From a virus, in the IMG/VR virus record IMGVR_UViG_3300043119_000192, positions 1-38,346 of that record: a DNA stretch of 38,346 nt; one strand, given 5' to 3'. Shown here piece by piece: positions 3,568-11,208 of this stretch. The notes beneath the pieces were generated by a model, which was given only the letters and a program-made list of their open reading frames with translations, was not told where the DNA came from and searched no databases. Each line of letters starts with the position of its first letter. Positions within the stretch are counted from its first letter, which is position 1. A program made the translations under genes and the position numbers.

Positions 3568-6018
3568 TTACGCCCCGGTCGTCCCGTTAATGTACGGTCG
3601 CGGCATCGGATTGATGCGCCATGCAACGGAAAGGTTGCCCGTTACGTTGGTATCGGTTTTGATCGTGAAGTTGGTTCCACCGATGGCCCACACTTCCAAT
3701 CCGCCGCCACCCACACCCACGCCGCCATTGGACTTTAGCACCGAAAACGAGCTAATGCGCGGATTGCGAGGCAGGCCGTGAGCGACTGTGATGGAATTGG
3801 TTCCGCTAAGGATCGTCGCTGCACCCGCAGCGTGTTGCCGTTCAGACCAATCGCCATCGAGCAGCAGGTACGGGCAATTGCCGATGCCCGCGAACTGTGT
3901 TGTCGCCCCTGCCATCTTGTTATTCAGGAACTCGGCATAGGTCAGCGTAGCGTTACCAACGGCAATCGGCGTATTGATGCTTCCGAAAGCTCCGGTGATA
4001 ATCTCGTTATCGCGGCACTCGACTTTGCCCACGGCCATAGCCGTTGCGGACGCGCCATAAAACAGCGCGCCGTCGAGAGTGACAGTGCTGGTGATCGTGC
4101 GCGGATTGCGCAGCGTGTTGTTGTTGAATTTGAACTCGGTAATTTGTGCCGCGTTCAGCGGGTCGGTCGCCCTAGTGTAATTGACCACTTCCAGCCCTTC
4201 GGCGTCAAGGATCTGCACCGCAGCGTTTCGGAAGGCAAACAGGTTCTCGACATTGCGGAAGGTCGTATCCCGCAGCTTCACCCACTTGCAGGCGTCATCG
4301 GTGCGATAGACCACCCCGCCACTGGTGTACGTGCCTGAATAGGCCAGCGAGGTAATATCAAACTCTGTCGTAGAGATAACCGTACAATCCCCTGCACCGT
4401 TGGTAATCCCGCCCGCGTCTGCAAGCCTGATGTTTTCGCCAGTGCTATACCCGTGTGCGCTGCTAGTAGTCACGCGCACTTGGCCCGAACCGTTATCGGC
4501 TACAGTCGAGACAATTTTGTTATCGCTGTAAAGCCGGATAGCGTGGATTGAATTGAGGCACCGCGTTGCGGCTGAATAGCTCGCATCCCAGTTTGTCGTG
4601 AGGTCAAACGCAGTCGTTGAAACCAGCGTCGCCACATTGCCTACCGCCCCAACACCCGCACCGCTTTCAAAGCGGATGGCGTTGTTCGCATAATACCCGT
4701 GCGCCGTGGTCGTCGTAATCCGCACCTTGCCCGCGCCGTTATCAGCAATGCTGGCAATCGTAAGCGCATTGTCGCCAACCACGTCAAAATCATTTGCGCC
4801 AATGAAAAAGCTCACAACGCTTTTGGCGAGGATCGCCGCCGTGGTGTTGTTCACCGTTGGCTTGATGCCCTTGCCAACATTGCCGTAGATCAATGCCTGA
4901 TTTGGCCGCGCCGTCCGGTCGAGCGAATAGTTGGCACCGCAGATGAAAAAGATATTAGCGTTATAAATCTGATTGTTGCAGATGGTCTGCCGGTCGTTGA
5001 TGCGGATGCCGCCGCCGCCTGCTTGGGTCAGCGTCCCGCCGACATTGTCATAGGTTACGAATTGGCCGGGGCTAAAAATCACGTTGTCTGCAATCACGCC
5101 CGAAGCGGAGAAAAATGCAACCGCAATGGCGTCGTCGCCAGTAAAATTAATGTAGTTACGGCATACCTGAAAGCCCATGCCGAAATTCGGCACGTATCCG
5201 CGCAAGTCTACCGCCGTTGCGCCGATCCGGTAGAAGCGGTTATCGCAGACGGACCAACCCGCACCGCTGATGTCCGACGATACGGCGAACAAACCAGTGT
5301 CCTCAAAAACACAGTGGTGAACCCGCACGTTAGACGACCTCAGCCCATAGACGCACGACTTGTTCGAACGGTCCACAAAGCCACCCGCAAAGCTATGGCT
5401 CATCCGCAGGCCGCTAATCTCGACATCATCAATGTCGATCAGGGTGAACAAGTGATTGAACTGATCGGCGCGAAAAACTTTGGCCCCACTGCCATAGATG
5501 CGCGCACCCGAACGCAAGGCAACGGGGCTAGTGATTTTGTAATTCTCGCTGGGGCCGCCATACTGCACATAGAGCGAAGCGTTATGCGCCGCCTGAAGCG
5601 CAGCCGTATCGTCTGTGGTGCCGTCACCGGTAGCGCCGAAGTCCTTTACGTGGACAATATCCCGCATCTTGTTTTGAGCGGTGCGAGTAACCGCCCCCGT
5701 GCCAGCCTGCAAGAATGTAAAGTCCGCACTGCTTGCCGAGATCACCACGTTGTTGCCATTCGTCACAACGCGGCTGTTGTCGTCCAGCACCGTAATCGAG
5801 ACGGTGGAGGCAGCGGAATAAATGCCAGCCTTTGCGCCCTGATAAGCAGGATAGCCGTTGACCGTGCGGATCGGCTGCGCCCATGGCAGGGTTTGCGCTA
5901 CGTCACGATAGACCGTGATCGGATTGGTGCGCGCGTCCAGCCCTGCCGAACCGACATAGATGTAGCCGCCCGTACCGGCTTCGGGAAAGTAGGGGAACGG
6001 ATCGAGGATGTCGGTCAT
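3568..6018 (-). CDS. Tailspike / depolymerase with a right-handed beta-helix (pectate-lyase-like) domain
   Basis: VKDFGATGDGTTDDTAALQAA is the signature at the start of pectate-lyase/polygalacturonase-type beta-helices. The N-terminal particle-binding-type segment is GGYIYVGSAGLDARTNPITVY...QPIRT. The central part carries a two-copy internal domain repeat. Confidence 0.85.
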   Translation of the reverse strand: MTDILDPFPYFPEAGTGGYIYVGSAGLDARTNPITVYRDVAQTLPWAQPIRTVNGYPAYQGAKAGIYSAASTVSITVLDDNSRVVTNGNNVVISASSADFTFLQAGTGAVTRTAQNKMRDIVHVKDFGATGDGTTDDTAALQAAHNASLYVQYGGPSENYKITSPVALRSGARIYGSGAKVFRADQFNHLFTLIDIDDVEISGLRMSHSFAGGFVDRSNKSCVYGLRSSNVRVHHCVFEDTGLFAVSSDISGAGWSVCDNRFYRIGATAVDLRGYVPNFGMGFQVCRNYINFTGDDAIAVAFFSASGVIADNVIFSPGQFVTYDNVGGTLTQAGGGGIRINDRQTICNNQIYNANIFFICGANYSLDRTARPNQALIYGNVGKGIKPTVNNTTAAILAKSVVSFFIGANDFDVVGDNALTIASIADNGAGKVRITTTTAHGYYANNAIRFESGAGVGAVGNVATLVSTTAFDLTTNWDASYSAATRCLNSIHAIRLYSDNKIVSTVADNGSGQVRVTTSSAHGYSTGENIRLADAGGITNGAGDCTVISTTEFDITSLAYSGTYTSGGVVYRTDDACKWVKLRDTTFRNVENLFAFRNAAVQILDAEGLEVVNYTRATDPLNAAQITEFKFNNNTLRNPRTITSTVTLDGALFYGASATAMAVGKVECRDNEIITGAFGSINTPIAVGNATLTYAEFLNNKMAGATTQFAGIGNCPYLLLDGDWSERQHAAGAATILSGTNSITVAHGLPRNPRISSFSVLKSNGGVGVGGGGLEVWAIGGTNFTIKTDTNVTGNLSVAWRINPMPRPYINGTTGA

Positions 6019-8720
6019 TGTGTGGGCGCTCCGAATGTCATGGGTTCAGGGCCTGCAACCTTTTCAGCGGTTACTGCACCTGCCGACGCGGCAAGCGTCT
6101 GGTTTAGTCTGTTAATCAACTCTGCCTGCGCGTTGCCACTTGTCTGACCGATCTTTACCAGAAGATTGCGGACAGGCGCACTTTCGTAGAGACTGCGGGC
6201 AGCGCCAAAACCAGCCGCAAGGCCAACACCAGTCCCAAAGTCAAAGCCTAGAAGCGTGGCAAGCTGACCTACTGTCCCGCCCGCAGCGTACGGCACAAGC
6301 TTGGCTCCGGTGTTTGGTACAAAATTAGCATCTTGCGCACGTCGCGTTGCTGTTAGAAGGGCTGTCAGCCCCTTGACCTTTTTGGCATCCTCGCCGCCGA
6401 AGAACATGCGAAACGCGCTGTCTTTGTCGGTAACGGCCTTAGCAAAAGCTTGCGGATTGATCTCGCCGGTCTGCGCGTTGTATGCCTTTTTAGCAGCATC
6501 CTGCAAAAGCAAAAGGCGCGCATTTTCTCGGCCCTTCTTGCCAAGGTTGGTAAAAAGCAGCCTAGCCTCTTGCGGGTTTTTGCTATTAAGCATTTTGCTA
6601 ACTTGTGCCGGGTCAAAGTCGCCCTTATCAAGTACGCGCTTCAGACCCTGCTGTTCAAGTTCACCGACCATTGTGGCCAGCTTGGTGTTAGCCACCTTCC
6701 ATTTGTTGAAGTCCTTCATGTCGCCATTGGCTTTAATGAAGTCACCCATGTCATCATTGAGCGCGTTATAAACTGCGCCGAATGCCTTTTCAGCCTTGCC
6801 TTTGACATTTGACAAAGCCTCATCACCCTTAAGGCCAAAGATGGTCGCGCGATTATCTTCGATCTTGCGAAGCCCCCCCGGACCCTCAAGGCTGCGCTTT
6901 GTGTCCTCAAGGTCATTAATGAGCTTGCCAAGCTGGCGCGACATGTTCTCGCCTTTTAGCTTAGCCAGAAGGCCATCAATGGCGTCAAGCGCCTTGGGTG
7001 CGGAGACATCGCCAAGCGTATTGTAGCGGTCAATCACCTCGTTTTTAAGGCCCGCATACTTCTCAATGTCAGCCGCCCGCTTTTCGGTCAGGCTTTCAAC
7101 AACATCTTTTGCGATGTTTTGGTCAATGGTGACGCCAGCATCGCCAAGCAGTTTTTCAACCGCCTGCACACGCGCTTCCTGCTGCCCGCGCCGCCTACCA
7201 GCAGTGCCAAAAGGCGCAAGTTCGCCAGCCTGCTCCACCGTCTTACCCATGAAGGTTTGAGGCGGTCTAACGTCTGAAGTCATCACCGGCACATCAAACT
7301 GACGGCCTGCCTCAATGACGGTTTCAGGCGTTGCCTGCGGGCCACCAAACCTTGGCGCAGGAGTGGGCGCTTCACCGCCCAGAAATGAACCGGGACCGCC
7401 CGGCAAAAAGCGATTAGCAAGCATCCCACCCGCCAATGCACCACCAGCGCCAATCGCCGCGCCGGTCATCTTCTGGCCTTCAGGAGCCTCGCCCGCACCG
7501 AATGCACCGCCGTAAAGAGTTTCCCCTACCAATGGAGCAGCGCCCGCCAGACGAGAACCTGCGAGCATAGCGCTAGCCCCACGAATGGCGGGGATTGATG
7601 CCATCGCGCCGCCCGTCATTTCGCCAACAAAGGATGACACCGGAGCATTTTCCCGAAGGTATGCCTTAGCTGCCTCTATCCTTTGTGGGTCCAGCCCGAG
7701 GATCGGGGCAAGTTCATCTAGGTTGCCAGCCGTCAGCGCATTGGCCGCACCAAGACCATAGCCCGAAACAGTCTCCTGAAGGGCCGATGGAGCCTCATTG
7801 AACCCCGAAGGCTCTACAATAGCCTTGATGCCCTTAGTGCCTTTGTCACGCGCTTGAATAGCCTGCTCAAGGCCTTGAAATGCGGGCCGGTTATATCGCG
7901 CGGCGAGGGCATTTATTTCTTCTAGGCTCGCACCCCTATCAAAAGCCGCTTGAGCTTCAGCCTGTAGCGCCAAATCCTGCTCAGTCATAAACGCGCCAGC
8001 GCCTACAGACTTTGGCGTTGCTCCGGTTTCAGCCCCGCCTTGAGCAATCGGCATTCCGTTTTCATCAACAAAGCCAAGTGCGCGCAAGTTCTCATCTGCG
8101 CGTCGTGCGCCTTGCTCGCCAGCAAGAGCTTTGAACCCAAGGATTGTAAGTTCACGTTGTTGGCGTTTTGTGTCAATTTCCTTCTGCCCGGCACCGGGTT
8201 GCGGGAAAAAGATACGCGCCTGCTTTTCAAACTCCGAAGGGCCAATAGCCGCACCCGACTCTAGACGTAGCGATGCGGCGATGAAGTTCTCCATCGCATC
8301 AAGCTGCGTACGGCGCTCATCACTTAGGGCCGCGCGGGAGAACGTAGGGGAAATGCGCTGCGCAATAAGTGTTGAAAACCCCTGAGGATCAAGGCCCAAA
8401 CGATTAAGTTGCGTATCTGCCGAACGCATACGCTGATAGAAGTTGACCGCCTTACTTTCGCCTTCGCTCAATTCTTTGGTTGTGATCGGCTCAATCTTGC
8501 CAGCGCCATTAATCTGATAGCGCTGGCCTTCCTGCAAGCCGGCTGCCTTAATCTCATCTGGCGTCATTACGCGCCAGCGCTCAGGCTCGCGCACTGGCGA
8601 GGGAAGGTCAGGCTTTTCAGGCGCGGGCGGAACATAGATAGCGCCGCCAGACGTAGGCGCGGTCTGCGCCGGGTCTGCTACCACCGGGCTATCTGCCCAC
8701 CAATCTTTAGTCTGTGCCAT
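6015..8720 (-). CDS. Large internal virion / DNA-ejection protein (901 aa)
   Basis: Its position is between the ejection-protein genes and the tailspike. It is long, Ala/Gly/Gln-rich and helical in character, with a Gly-rich hydrophobic central stretch. No enzymatic motif was recognised. Confidence 0.55.
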   Translation of the reverse strand: MAQTKDWWADSPVVADPAQTAPTSGGAIYVPPAPEKPDLPSPVREPERWRVMTPDEIKAAGLQEGQRYQINGAGKIEPITTKELSEGESKAVNFYQRMRSADTQLNRLGLDPQGFSTLIAQRISPTFSRAALSDERRTQLDAMENFIAASLRLESGAAIGPSEFEKQARIFFPQPGAGQKEIDTKRQQRELTILGFKALAGEQGARRADENLRALGFVDENGMPIAQGGAETGATPKSVGAGAFMTEQDLALQAEAQAAFDRGASLEEINALAARYNRPAFQGLEQAIQARDKGTKGIKAIVEPSGFNEAPSALQETVSGYGLGAANALTAGNLDELAPILGLDPQRIEAAKAYLRENAPVSSFVGEMTGGAMASIPAIRGASAMLAGSRLAGAAPLVGETLYGGAFGAGEAPEGQKMTGAAIGAGGALAGGMLANRFLPGGPGSFLGGEAPTPAPRFGGPQATPETVIEAGRQFDVPVMTSDVRPPQTFMGKTVEQAGELAPFGTAGRRRGQQEARVQAVEKLLGDAGVTIDQNIAKDVVESLTEKRAADIEKYAGLKNEVIDRYNTLGDVSAPKALDAIDGLLAKLKGENMSRQLGKLINDLEDTKRSLEGPGGLRKIEDNRATIFGLKGDEALSNVKGKAEKAFGAVYNALNDDMGDFIKANGDMKDFNKWKVANTKLATMVGELEQQGLKRVLDKGDFDPAQVSKMLNSKNPQEARLLFTNLGKKGRENARLLLLQDAAKKAYNAQTGEINPQAFAKAVTDKDSAFRMFFGGEDAKKVKGLTALLTATRRAQDANFVPNTGAKLVPYAAGGTVGQLATLLGFDFGTGVGLAAGFGAARSLYESAPVRNLLVKIGQTSGNAQAELINRLNQTLAASAGAVTAEKVAGPEPMTFGAPTQ

Positions 8721-9007
8721 TAGCCCTTAGGCTCCATGTGAATATGATCGCCCTCGTTAATCACATCGAGGCCGGGGTTAAGGCGGCGAAGTTGCGCGGC
8801 GTATGCTGCCATGCTCACACCCGGCGGGGGTACGCTGTCACGCGCGCGGCCAGACAAGTGATAGCTATTCGCCACCCCGCCTACTGCCTTGTTTCGTTCC
8901 GGACTGCGCATTGTCGAAGTCACCTTTTCACCGGGCACACCCTTAGGGGCGAAACCCGCTGGTAGCGTTGCCGCTACCACCTCCCGGCTTTGTGCGGATA
9001 ACACCAT
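8720..9007 (-). CDS. Peptidase M15 (VanY/zinc D-Ala-D-Ala carboxypeptidase-like) domain; either free-standing or a +1-frameshift extension of 8943-9809
   Basis: KVTSTMRSPERNKAVGGVANSYHLSGRARD...EGDHIHME matches the SxHxxGxAxD ... H zinc-ligand pattern of M15. The only in-frame ATG (9007) lacks an SD and lies 65 nt inside the upstream gene. Confidence 0.75.
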   Translation of the reverse strand: MVLSAQSREVVAATLPAGFAPKGVPGEKVTSTMRSPERNKAVGGVANSYHLSGRARDSVPPPGVSMAAYAAQLRRLNPGLDVINEGDHIHMEPKG

Positions 9008-9809
9008 TGGGATCGTAGAACGTTGTTCCCGGCGGCAATGCGTCAAACTCAGCCTTACTCTTTGGCTTGGCAGGGCCACCGCGCTGCGCATTTGCAGGAG
9101 GCTCACCACCAAAGCGACGGCGGAACTCTTCGGCAGGGCCACTAAAGAAACCAATGCGCGGATCGGTGATAGTCACCTTGGTGCGCTCATCCTTCAAGGC
9201 TTGCTTGAACTCCGGCGTTCCAACCGCTTCCGGCCCCATTTCAGCGACAAGGTTCTTAATCAGAGCCGTGTCAAGCTTCATGTCTTGGTTGGCATAAACG
9301 GTTTCGTAAGCCTTCGGATCAAGCTGCTGGATCGTAAGCGCAAGGCCAGCCTTTAAAGCTTCGGGATTGCTATCAAACTGCGCCAAGCCTTCCTCTAGCA
9401 GCTTAACGGTCTGTTCCTGTCCCGGCGTGTTTCTGGTTGCTGTAAGGCGCTCGTTTACCAACTGCTTGGCGTAATCCTTATCGCCGCGATTGAGCGCGCT
9501 AAGGGTCTTGCCGTAAAAGGCAACCTCTTGAGCCTTGCGCTGCTCATTCATAGGCTCATACGCCTGCTTAATTACTTCCGCCATTTGCGGGAACTTAAGC
9601 AAGCCTTGCGCCACGTTCTGCGGAGAAGGGTCTTTCAAAAGAAGCTGCGACCATTGCTGGAACTGCATCTTTTGCTGCTCTTGCGCAACCTGCTGCTGCA
9701 TAGCCTGATCTTCGGCCACGCGAGCGGCGCGGGCCTTTTGGAACGAGTCCATGAACGCCTGCCCCGGATCGGGCATAGCTTGCAGGAAGGGGAGGGGATT
9801 GATTGCCAT
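8943..9809 (-). CDS. Internal virion / ejection protein (288 aa)
   Basis: Gln-rich helical protein ending in a Gly/Ser linker (PGGGSGNATSGFRP). TAATG coupling to the upstream gene. Confidence 0.6.
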   Translation of the reverse strand: MAINPLPFLQAMPDPGQAFMDSFQKARAARVAEDQAMQQQVAQEQQKMQFQQWSQLLLKDPSPQNVAQGLLKFPQMAEVIKQAYEPMNEQRKAQEVAFYGKTLSALNRGDKDYAKQLVNERLTATRNTPGQEQTVKLLEEGLAQFDSNPEALKAGLALTIQQLDPKAYETVYANQDMKLDTALIKNLVAEMGPEAVGTPEFKQALKDERTKVTITDPRIGFFSGPAEEFRRRFGGEPPANAQRGGPAKPKSKAEFDALPPGTTFYDPNGVIRTKPGGGSGNATSGFRP

Positions 9810-10756
9810 TAGAACGTAACCTGCCTGCCGGAAGCGTCAAAAGTTCCACTGCCATAGCCGGTTATAAGACCGGGCATCGGAGGCAATTGAGCAATGGGAA
9901 TGCCGCTAAGGCTACCGAGCGCGCTATTGGAATTGATGCCAGAGCCGTTAAAGCTTGATTGGCCACCCAAAGCCCCGCCAAGGATGTTGCCAAGGCTCGC
10001 CACGCCCTGCCCAAGAGCCATGCCCGAACCTAGCGCGCCATAGCCCCTAGCCTGCCCGGTATCCCGCATCAGCGCGCCAATGGACTGCCCGGTCTGAATA
10101 TCTGCATTACCGACGCCTGCCGCTGCATTCTGCCCCAGCCCTGCGATGCCGCCAAGCGTGGAAAGCTGCTGCTGAATTTGCTGGTTAAGCAATGCGGGAC
10201 GGAACTGGCCTAGTGCCCCCTGCACGTTTCCGCCCCGCAGCCCCCCGGTTGCGCTCGCGTTTTGCAGGATACCCTCTTCACCCTGCCGTGCGAGAGCCTG
10301 AAACATCGGGCTTTGCTCAAGTTGGCTGATAGCCTGCTGCTGTGCATCCATGCCGCCGGTCTGGAACTGCGAGAGATCGGCGCGAGGATCGTTCCGCTGC
10401 TGCCACTGCTGCGCGAACGTCGCCAAGTCCTGCGCTGGCATCCCGAACATGCCCGGTCGGGACTGCTGCTGCTGAAACGCCTGCATCAATGCCGGGTTGG
10501 ATTGCGCGTAGGCCTGCCAGTTGGTCTGCTGCGGTGCCGCCCCTGCCAGCGTGAGAAGCTGCTGGAATGCCCCCGTACCGCCTTGTGCGTAAGGAGCGAG
10601 AAGCTGCTGCACCCGGTCAAACTGGCGGCGCTGTTCCGCAATGGCCTGCGCGTTAGCCTCTGCCTGCGCATTCGCTGCCGACTTCGCACCACCGGAAGCC
10701 AGAAGCCCCCCGCCGATTGAAGCCGCCGCGCCGATAAGGGCTGAAGCTACTGCCAT
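9809..10756 (-). CDS. Gly/Ala/Gln-rich internal virion / ejection protein (315 aa)
   Basis: Hydrophobic Gly-rich N-terminus with low-complexity Q/A/G composition. It sits in the ejection-protein position and its start overlaps the GNAT stop (TAATG). Confidence 0.55.
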   Translation of the reverse strand: MAVASALIGAAASIGGGLLASGGAKSAANAQAEANAQAIAEQRRQFDRVQQLLAPYAQGGTGAFQQLLTLAGAAPQQTNWQAYAQSNPALMQAFQQQQSRPGMFGMPAQDLATFAQQWQQRNDPRADLSQFQTGGMDAQQQAISQLEQSPMFQALARQGEEGILQNASATGGLRGGNVQGALGQFRPALLNQQIQQQLSTLGGIAGLGQNAAAGVGNADIQTGQSIGALMRDTGQARGYGALGSGMALGQGVASLGNILGGALGGQSSFNGSGINSNSALGSLSGIPIAQLPPMPGLITGYGSGTFDASGRQVTF

Positions 10757-11208
10757 TAGTTGAACCTCTTGATGAATGTATGCTCAAAGGGCCGATACCC
10801 GCGCCGCTCGTAAAGCTTCGCCATGCGCTGCCCTTCCAGCCGGTCGATGCACTTCATCTGCCATGTTGAGCAACCTTGCGCCTTGGCCGCGTCCTCGATA
10901 GCGTTAAGCAAGCGAATGCCCGTCATTGCAGGCGCGCCATCCGCAACCCACCAGAACAATTCCTCACCAGACTTGTGCGCGCGGTTGAAGTAGACCGGCG
11001 AAACCATGCCGCCCACCATGCCGACGATACCGTCAGCTTCCGCGACAAAGCACAGGAAAATGTCAAGCGACAGAAGCCACTCAAGCGAGGCGATGCAGTC
11101 CGCTTCCACGTACTCAAATAGATCATCCTGCCGCGCGCTAACGTCAAAGTCCCGACCCATGGCTGCCATGGCGGGAATGTCGTCAATCGTTGCGGGTCTA
11201 ATCTGCAT
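10756..11208 (-). CDS. GNAT-family N-acetyltransferase
   Basis: 150 aa with a typical GNAT layout (IRPATIDDIPAM..., a central beta-strand/helix core, and a C-terminal KLYERRGYRP acetyl-CoA-pocket-type motif). Confidence 0.75.
   Translation of the reverse strand: MQIRPATIDDIPAMAAMGRDFDVSARQDDLFEYVEADCIASLEWLLSLDIFLCFVAEADGIVGMVGGMVSPVYFNRAHKSGEELFWWVADGAPAMTGIRLLNAIEDAAKAQGCSTWQMKCIDRLEGQRMAKLYERRGYRPFEHTFIKRFN

Follow-up and report, generated by a model that had tools for sequence, protein, structure and literature searches.

The window analysed here is a 38,346-nucleotide stretch of viral DNA, namely positions 1 to 38,346 of the IMG/VR record IMGVR_UViG_3300043119_000192. It represents a P22-like podophage with genes for a terminase, a P22 portal, a P22 coat, gp10-like, gp7-like and gp16-like proteins and a pectate-lyase-like tailspike. 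The subject of this study is the junction between the gene of a helical ejection-type internal virion protein of 288 amino acids (open reading frame 1, ORF1; 8943 to 9809, minus strand) and a coding extension in the +1 frame, which contains a minimal M15 (LAS) zinc peptidase domain. Comparison with related sequences indicates that +1 recoding very likely joins the two frames, which would result in two isoforms, the 288-amino-acid ejection protein and a 362-amino-acid fusion of the ejection protein with the M15 peptidase.

An ejection-protein gene and a peptidase in the +1 frame

All features described below are located on the minus strand. ORF1 ends with ...GGGSGNATSGFRP-TAA and its 3′ end reads ...AGC GGG TTT CGC CCC TAA. 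Between 9154 and 8720 the +1 frame remains open, and from position 8944 onwards it encodes the 74 residues KGVPGEKVTSTMRSPERNKAVGGVANSYHLSGRARD...EGDHIHMEPKG. The initial annotation had described a 288-amino-acid frame ending in CCC-TAA and a +1 frame that is open into an M15 domain, and both coordinates were confirmed. Counted from the Phe codon at the junction, the extension (F-APKGVPGEK...EGDHIHMEPKG-stop) occupies positions 8720 to 8953, with the peptidase domain at about 8932 to 8723. The sequence around the junction starts with the pentamer GGAGG (8980 to 8984), which resembles a Shine-Dalgarno (SD) sequence, encodes a conserved Gly-Gly and may have a role in the shift. It is located directly 5′ of an RNA hairpin with the structure UGGUAGCG-GCAA-CGCUACCA (8960 to 8979; 8 bp, GNRA-type loop), a candidate 5′ stimulator that ends 5 nt upstream of UUU. 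The tetranucleotide UUU_C (8951 to 8954) is the proposed main slip site, and CCC_UAA_G (8942 to 8948) comprises the last sense codon (CCC, 8948-8946) together with the frame-0 stop (TAA, 8945-8943).

ORF1 is flanked by the gene of a gp7-like ejection protein upstream (315 amino acids; 9809 to 10756; PF25688; phrog_598, DNA ejection, E 7e-33) and the gene of a gp16-like DNA transfer protein downstream (901 amino acids; 6015 to 8720; phrog_770, E 1.4e-46), and it was therefore placed at the position of the P22 ejection gene 20. The P22 portal, coat and gp10-like genes are found upstream of the gp7-like gene, in accordance with the order of a P22-like late operon. A search with ORF1 itself retrieved no significant Pfam match (best DUF6735, E 0.062) and no PHROG match, and its designation as a gp20 counterpart is based on gene position only. 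The stop codon of the peptidase frame overlaps the ATG of the 901-amino-acid gene in the sequence TAATG at 8720, so that frameshifted ribosomes would terminate exactly at the start codon of the gp16-like gene. TAATG stop/start overlaps are present at both ends of the ORF1-peptidase unit (8720-8724 and 9809-9813), and such overlaps between consecutive genes of the ejection module are a typical pattern of translational coupling.

The extension is a genuine domain. It matches the Pfam family Peptidase_M15_3 (PF08291) with 30.7 bits (cut-off 23.2; E 3.6e-7) and the PHROG family phrog_894 (endolysin) with an E-value of 6.4e-9. The Pfam match spans only positions 45-107 of the 108 profile positions and thus represents a minimal domain without the N-terminal 44 positions. 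The zinc ligands H-x6-D and H-x-H are located in the motifs SYHLSGRARD and DHIH, and the family alignment A1 shows no variation at the four residues H56, D63, H94 and H96, which corroborates the proposal that these 74 residues hold the complete M15 ligand pattern. An AlphaFold (AF2) model of the 362-amino-acid fusion has a mean predicted local distance difference test (pLDDT) of 86. Its N-terminal body is helical with pLDDT values of mostly 80-96, the linker at about residues 277-284, exactly the stretch that is encoded by the hairpin, is disordered (pLDDT <50), and the C-terminal domain reaches 93-97 across most of residues 290-360. The best Foldseek match in the PDB is 1lbu, the Zn DD-peptidase of Streptomyces albus (probability 1.00, 74 columns, root-mean-square deviation 2.9 Å, 28% identity), with an E-value of only 0.1 for the full-length query, and the sequence search against the PDB yielded a marginal match (E 0.12).

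Distant relatives of the minimal domain are located inside the tape measure proteins of Microbacterium and Curtobacterium phages (e.g. NC_073445.1, 12748-12900; PQ007092.1, 5976-6176), and others are ‘peptidase’ genes of many Microviridae and endolysins of Burkholderia phages. A role of the domain in peptidoglycan cleavage during entry is consistent with the annotations of distant relatives, and its activity would be the one known from the family.

Conservation of the junction in related phages

A homologue search with the hypothetical 362-amino-acid fusion as query showed that all close homologues (47-80% identity) are about 282-294 amino acids long and correspond to ORF1 alone, while many of the more distant proteins (about 310-350 amino acids) harbor PF08291 at the C-terminus of a single ORF. 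The contigs of seven close relatives were fetched; all of them stem from independent assemblies and all seven contain the peptidase domain in the +1 frame. The single-ORF homologues (...GGASGNAGGNFRPVGIPGERVTST... and ...GGASGNAGGNFRPVGIPGERVTSTRRSPAHNKAVGG...) correspond to frame 0 of the window up to the residues G-F and to the +1 frame thereafter, and they are collinear without a gap. This collinearity places the junction inside GGG TTT CGC CCC TAA, where both frames encode G-F-(R/A)-P.

For a census of the arrangement, viral, genome and metagenome collections were scanned with the alignment of junction and domain, which resulted in 124 unique junctions. The peptidase is located in the +1 frame relative to a long upstream ORF in 61 of them and in the -1 frame in nine (a tenth, L081, was misclassified); 48 are single ORFs, and five are truncated or of other types. 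A viral-contig scan with ORF1 alone retrieved only two loci and was uninformative. Clustering at 40% identity divides the N-terminal parts of the split genes, i.e. of the +1 and -1 loci, into 24 groups, and the conservation of the split among them is indicative of an old and widespread arrangement rather than an assembly error or a recent lesion. The comparison with relatives hence lends strong support to the earlier proposal of a programmed +1 frameshift that fuses the ejection protein to the M15 domain.

The most conspicuous element of the junction is the Phe codon of the linker motif GG-x8-F. All 61 junctions of the +1 type have a frame-0 TTT at this invariant Phe, which is followed by C in 56 loci and by T in five (TTT-TAA or TTT-TGA), while TTT accounts for only 37% of the Phe codons elsewhere in the same genes (59.6% GC). 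The overlapping +1 codon to which tRNA-Phe could move is accordingly UUC or UUU. When the sequences are anchored on this TTT, variability peaks at the third positions of frame 0 upstream and at the third positions of the +1 frame from the very next codon onwards. One example is the +1 Pro codon CCN, which is conserved, whereas the overlapping frame-0 codon varies at its first base. A frame-0 stop is located 0-7 codons past UUU in 61/61 loci, compared with a background of 27.5%.

A hairpin of 7-9 bp, whose 3′ arm ends 3-5 nt before UUU, is present at all 61 junctions. The minimum free energy of its 24-nt core averages -14.1 kcal/mol (range -9.4 to -17.5), with a mean z-score of -3.2. The stems have diverged between lineages (GGUAGC/GCUACC, GCUAGC/GCUAGC, GCUGGC/GUCAGC, CCGGCG/CGCCGG and CCGACGC/GCGUCGG), and the loops are GNRA-like, UNCG-like or 5 nt long. 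Among the 25 distinct sequences of class I, 200 of 200 cells pair and both sides have changed in 8/8 pairs; the observed values were reached by none of 500 shuffles on four measures and by one of 500 on the fifth, and slid controls pair in 17-62%. The 15 sequences of class II show the same picture, with 105 of 105 cells pairing, changes on both sides in 5/7 pairs, 0/500 shuffles on four measures and 4/500 on the fifth, and 29-40% pairing in slid controls. The full pairing and the many compensatory changes document that the hairpin is under selection. It is the 20-nt hairpin alone that stands out, since the fold of the whole region 8900-9000 is unexceptional (z -1.0). A search of Rfam retrieved no matching family, and a function as intrinsic terminator was ruled out, because the stem lacks an abutting U-tract and the gene continues.

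The pentamer GGAGG is found directly 5′ of the hairpin position at a fixed offset in 69 of the 70 split loci. Its first Gly codon is GGA in 58/61 loci of the +1 type, in comparison with 8.4% of the Gly codons elsewhere. The 38-kb window contains a single copy of the composite motif of GGAGG, hairpin and TTTY, which is located at the junction, and 74 of the 78 occurrences of the motif in 890 kb of related loci are likewise located at a junction. One of the other four represents the true junction of L027 (L027:1684-2260), where the cassette is located about 106 codons upstream of the peptidase and the +1 extension first encodes an additional domain of about 100 amino acids (...GDGSISTVRTISIGVDGGEVVIPTV...), which is also present in-frame in protein P0030. 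This layout suggests that the cassette marks a module boundary and not the start of the peptidase as such.

In the nine -1 loci (L018, L020, L021, L048, L091, L101, L103, L104 and L142), the site precedes the start of the domain by about 10-25 nt. At the same Phe codon all of them read [G/A]GC CCT TTC G, which comprises C_CCU_UUC, a canonical heptamer of the X_XXY_YYZ type. A rare Val codon, GTA-G, creates a TAG two codons later, and GGAGG is located 18 nt upstream. The upstream hairpin is absent from these loci (mean -5.9 kcal/mol, z +0.7), and no convincing 3′ stimulatory structure was found in them, given a weak consensus of -6.9 kcal/mol with little covariation.

Seven single-ORF loci (L039, L040, L050, L100, L114, L117 and L129) combine the GG-x8-F motif with a domain at the C-terminus, and all of them keep GGAGG, the hairpin and TTT[C/T] at 7-16 codons before the start of the domain. 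Their +1 frame stops after 2-12 codons (FK*, FAP*, FAAL*, FQAAFGG*...), compared with a background of 28.9% for stops within at most 12 codons. A shift at the retained cassette would hence yield a truncated isoform without peptidase, i.e. the mirror image of the window, which argues that the cassette may serve to provide two isoforms, with and without the peptidase. In single-ORF loci with an internal peptidase the hairpin is absent, and the slip position usually lacks a Phe.

Place of the proposed shift and alternative explanations

The arrangement combines several features of +1 frameshifting, namely a +1 ORF without a start of its own, a slip codon that allows re-pairing, a conserved two-frame layout, a switch of the coding signature and a selected cis element. 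Provided that recoding takes place, the main slip site of the window is probably UUU_C. The initial annotation had instead proposed CCC-UAA, where peptidyl-tRNA-Pro would move from CCC to CCU with UAA in the A site (8948-8942) and generate the sequence ...SGFRP-KGVPGEK.... The predicted products of the two slips differ in a single residue, A287 for UUU_C and R287 for CCC_UAA. A precedent for the latter is CCC_UGA, a proven +1 site of Listeria phages (PMC5009743), and the single-ORF homologues have R (FRPVG) and not A, as would result from frame-0 reading through CGC. Moreover, CCC_UAR is present in 20 of the 32 loci with the F-x-P motif, including the window, and CCT makes up 72% of the +1-frame Pro codons at the site compared with a background of 21%. 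However, these 20 loci are the only ones with CCC_UAR among the 61, it is absent from the other 41, and selection for early termination of frame 0, which all 61 loci share, accounts equally well for the enrichment of CCT-A. In nine loci with a stop two codons past UUU, the codon preceding the stop is not slippery (CGC, CAA, GGT, CGT...). The FRG-type loci (L007, L032-34, L037, L043, L051, L061, L085 and L086, with FQG in L080) need a shift at or before the Phe, as their single-ORF homologues read GGF-RG[IL]xGER and the frame has accordingly changed at the Phe already. The spacing of the hairpin is fixed relative to UUU and not relative to CCC, and the switch of periodicity likewise occurs at the Phe. 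A shift at CCC-UAA as the primary event is thus unlikely and its original designation as the junction probably wrong, but the site possibly represents a second or back-up slip site in the window.

A small hairpin, GCCCC-UAAG-GGGUG, is predicted around the CCC-UAA stop of the window (8937-8950). It is absent from close relatives, with L003 and L008 reading ...CCCTAAAGGT... at this position, and is probably incidental.

An alternative without any frameshift would be the expression of the peptidase as a separate small gene, either from its own start (GTG 8923 or ATG 8911) or by termination-reinitiation, with the hairpin serving mRNA stability or translational coupling. The ATG at 9007, which had been named as the only in-frame ATG, is not conserved, and the inventory was incomplete, because the +1 frame also contains GTG 8938, GTG 8923 and ATG 8911 past the junction. 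GGTGA is located 4 nt before GTG 8923 and AAGGTGA 8 nt before ATG 8911, and gene callers report ORFs of 51-81 amino acids in most of the close relatives that were fetched (none in L003). Furthermore, a stand-alone M15 mini-peptidase gene of 86 amino acids exists in L077 (L077:1937-2198), which has a clear ATG of its own, a different N-terminus of 20 amino acids and no long upstream ORF. The distribution of start codons was determined for all 70 split loci in the stretch from the last upstream stop of the peptidase frame to the start of the domain. Four loci lack any ATG, GTG or TTG, 22 lack ATG and 33 lack a start that is preceded by an SD-like sequence. No start position in the peptidase frame is conserved among the 70 loci, and the V codon of the VTST motif is GTG, GTT, GTC, GTA, ATT, ATC or ATA; none of the three starts past the junction of the window is conserved in relatives. 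A +1-frame ATG located 11 nt past GGAGG recurs in about 16 loci, where it is formed as AAU-G by the A-U closing pair of the hairpin loop. This closing pair covaries (AU 12, GC 12), and the recurrent ATG is a by-product of the hairpin, sequestered in the stem-loop. A contrast between a group with CCC-TAA plus GTG start and a group with upstream ATG plus SD, which had hinted at independent initiation, did not hold, since L090 and L099 have both.

Independent expression is also at odds with the purifying selection on the +1 frame, which begins at the codon after the Phe and hence upstream of the starts proposed for a separate gene as well as of the frame-0 stop, and with the alignment of the residues APKGVxGE to the single-ORF homologues. 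It would leave unexplained why a frame-0 TTT is located exactly at the +1-frame TTC, and why a canonical heptamer occupies the same codon in the -1 loci. Taken together, a separate peptidase gene is improbable.

The weakest explanation is an artefact or decay, i.e. a sequencing or assembly indel in the indel-prone short homopolymer runs of the junction (GGG TTT C GCCCC) or a recent inactivating frameshift with a dead peptidase remnant, for which the existence of single-ORF relatives might speak, but its likelihood is close to nil and the indel that had been offered as the trivial alternative is excluded, because the identical layout recurs in independent assemblies from many samples and sources (ORF1 is recorded on three contigs), the peptidase frame is open with invariant catalytic residues in 61 +1 and nine -1 loci, and the site is accompanied by an RNA structure that covaries. 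Transcriptional slippage was rejected on general grounds, as a run of three T is far below the long homopolymer runs at which such slippage occurs.

Several observations weigh against a hairpin-stimulated shift at UUU_C, in addition to the two plausible starts of the window and the autonomous gene of L077. GGAGG ends 25 nt before UUU in the linear sequence, and at this distance a classical SD effect of the prfB type would require a folded hairpin. When UUU occupies the P site, the 3′ arm of the hairpin would be located inside or at the edge of the mRNA exit of the ribosome, and the action of upstream hairpins has been demonstrated for synthetic constructs only. The frame-0 A-site codon past UUU is CGC in the window and CCG, the commonest Pro codon of these genes, in many other loci, and a stop codon occupies this site in only 5/61 loci, the remainder having CGC, CCG, CAA and others. 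A pause at a hungry codon is thus not evident, and the stimulation would depend wholly on the proposed effect of the hairpin. A slowly decoded A-site codon would be available in the window only for a slip at CCC_UAA. The loci are phylogenetically related, so that raw counts overstate their independence. Finally, no close cultured relative was found in the phage collection that was searched: blastn with window positions 8600-9900 retrieved no match among cultured phages, tblastn with the fusion a single weak N-terminal match, and the domain consensus only distant relatives among endolysins, peptidases and tape measure proteins, whose identity across the whole domain does not exceed about 41%.

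Proposed mechanism and comparison with known systems

The proposed +1 recoding at UUU_C could proceed as follows. Most ribosomes would translate frame 0, stop at UAA (8945-8943) and release the helical 288-amino-acid ejection protein. When the P site holds UUU (8954-8952), the anticodon GAA of tRNA-Phe could re-pair with UUC (8953-8951), which represents the better match, and a minority of ribosomes would thereby enter the +1 frame and read 76 further codons, resulting in the 362-amino-acid isoform with its flexible Gly/Ser linker and the minimal M15 peptidase. The hairpin (8979-8960) would refold behind the ribosome beside the E site and promote the slip in a manner that is comparable to the internal SD duplex of prfB. 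GGAGG (8984-8980) may contribute, since the folded hairpin would bring it near the anti-SD of the ribosome. The CCC_UAA two codons later would either offer a second slip site or merely ensure early termination of unshifted ribosomes. Fusion to a packaged ejection protein could allow a few copies of the wall hydrolase to travel in the virion and, while the DNA is ejected, to cleave peptidoglycan locally.

Bacteria and phages rarely make use of +1 frameshifting, with prfB and structural genes of Listeria phages as examples (PMC5009743). In the tsh gene of the Listeria phages PSA, A118 and A500 the +1 shift occurs at CCC_UGA, and in cps of PSA at ACA_CCC (Zimmer et al. 2003, summarised in PMC5009743). 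These genes and, if it shifts as proposed, the present locus share a structural gene of a tailed phage with two virion proteins that differ at the C-terminus, +1 slippage in the P site and a frame-0 stop at or beside the site, with CCC_UAA in the window. Unlike in Listeria phages, the candidate slip codon of the family is UUU_C and not CCC, a 5′ hairpin and GGAGG take the place of a lone stop codon or a 3′ pseudoknot as associated signals, the extension adds an enzyme domain to an ejection protein instead of decorating capsid or tail, and the hosts are probably Gram-negative proteobacteria, judging from a few metagenome-assembled genomes.

The proposed re-pairing itself has a parallel in PA-X of influenza A virus (UCC_UUU_CGU), where slippage from UUU to UUC is the accepted event and a stimulatory signal is not evident (PMC5009743). 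The window (UUU_CGC) would resemble PA-X and the amalgavirus-type UUU_CGN sites in the movement of tRNA-Phe from UUU to UUC before a C-initial A-site codon. Those sites are, however, used by eukaryotic ribosomes and depend on a rare CGU or CGN codon, whereas the present loci have a strong conserved 5′ structure and varied A-site codons, of which at least CCG is common.

A functional analogue is prfB of Escherichia coli, which encodes RF2 (AGGGGG-UAU-CUU_UGA). In both, a duplex that abuts the E-site codon is separated by 3-5 nt from the slip codon in the P site, an SD-like sequence (here GGAGG) is present and the P-site tRNA has the potential for +1 re-pairing. The duplex of the present loci is an intramolecular mRNA hairpin and not an SD:anti-SD helix, GGAGG is located 25 nt upstream, the A-site codon is CGC and the system is not autoregulatory. 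The cassette accordingly falls outside the prfB-type class of SD-stimulated sites, and the likeness is functional only, with the hairpin duplex in place of the SD duplex.

When a hairpin is engineered upstream, beside a slip site, +1 frameshifting increases and -1 frameshifting is weakened, on 80S as well as on 70S ribosomes (Cho et al. 2013, PMC3639245; Huang et al. 2018, PMC6321510). The present loci share with these refolding hairpins the position of a stable hairpin beside the E site and the slip site. The engineered versions are synthetic reporters, with an effect on 70S ribosomes only in the absence of RF2 at CUU_UGA, whereas the element described here is natural, conserved and covarying. 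The presence of the hairpin in all +1 loci and its absence from the -1 loci would fit the direction effect of the engineered hairpins. In the seven single-ORF loci with a retained cassette, a shift would produce a truncated isoform, as in the tau/gamma system of E. coli dnaX. The dnaX shift is a -1 event on A_AAA_AAG with an SD sequence 8-11 nt upstream (PMC6321510) and a 3′ hairpin, as opposed to the proposed +1 shift on UUU_Y with a 5′ hairpin.

On balance, we lean towards regarding the GGAGG-hairpin-N(3-5)-UUU_Y cassette as a +1 signal that is both natural and modular, in which a 5′ hairpin refolds beside the E site, possibly with the assistance of the SD-like sequence. It would represent the first natural case in bacteria or phages, setting the proportion of peptidase-bearing protein either by extension or by truncation, and some lineages would have exchanged it for a -1 heptamer. 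Our literature search retrieved no description of the present frameshift and none of a natural 5′-hairpin +1 stimulator in bacteria or phages. The stimulators of +1 frameshifting are poorly understood, and the candidate signal occurs in about 70 distinct sequences of uncultured phages. Its slip codon is clear, and the 5′ hairpin, which covaries, keeps a fixed distance to this codon, the very geometry that engineered constructs predicted to push ribosomes forward. The mirror loci with a putative truncation and the -1 substitutes at the same codon provide a natural test set for the influence of 5′ structure on the direction of frameshifting.

Virion-borne wall hydrolases are known from podophages, such as the transglycosylase domain of T7 gp16 and P22 gp4. 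For the T7-like Alteromonas virus H4/4, a one-line annotation mentions a putative -1 site that links the gene of an endolysin with that of an internal protein of the virion (PMC5658483). The predicted fusion resembles all three in the attachment of a peptidoglycan-degrading activity to internal or ejection proteins of the virion. It differs from T7 gp16 and P22 gp4 in belonging to the M15 metallopeptidase class and in its presumed attachment by +1 recoding instead of a fixed fusion. For genome annotation, this means that gene callers either overlook a likely virion-borne M15 hydrolase or report it in two pieces, as a ‘hypothetical protein’ and as an orphan mini-ORF. The arrangement further suggests that the stoichiometry of enzyme-bearing ejection proteins may be set at the level of translation.

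Outside the junction, no tRNA genes were found in the window. A gene for a GNAT-family acetyltransferase of 150 amino acids (10756-11208, minus strand; PF00583, E 2.5e-4, barely over the cut-off) is located inside the block of virion and ejection genes, directly upstream of the gp7-like gene, and a syntenic ORF of 150 amino acids is present in L004 and L005.

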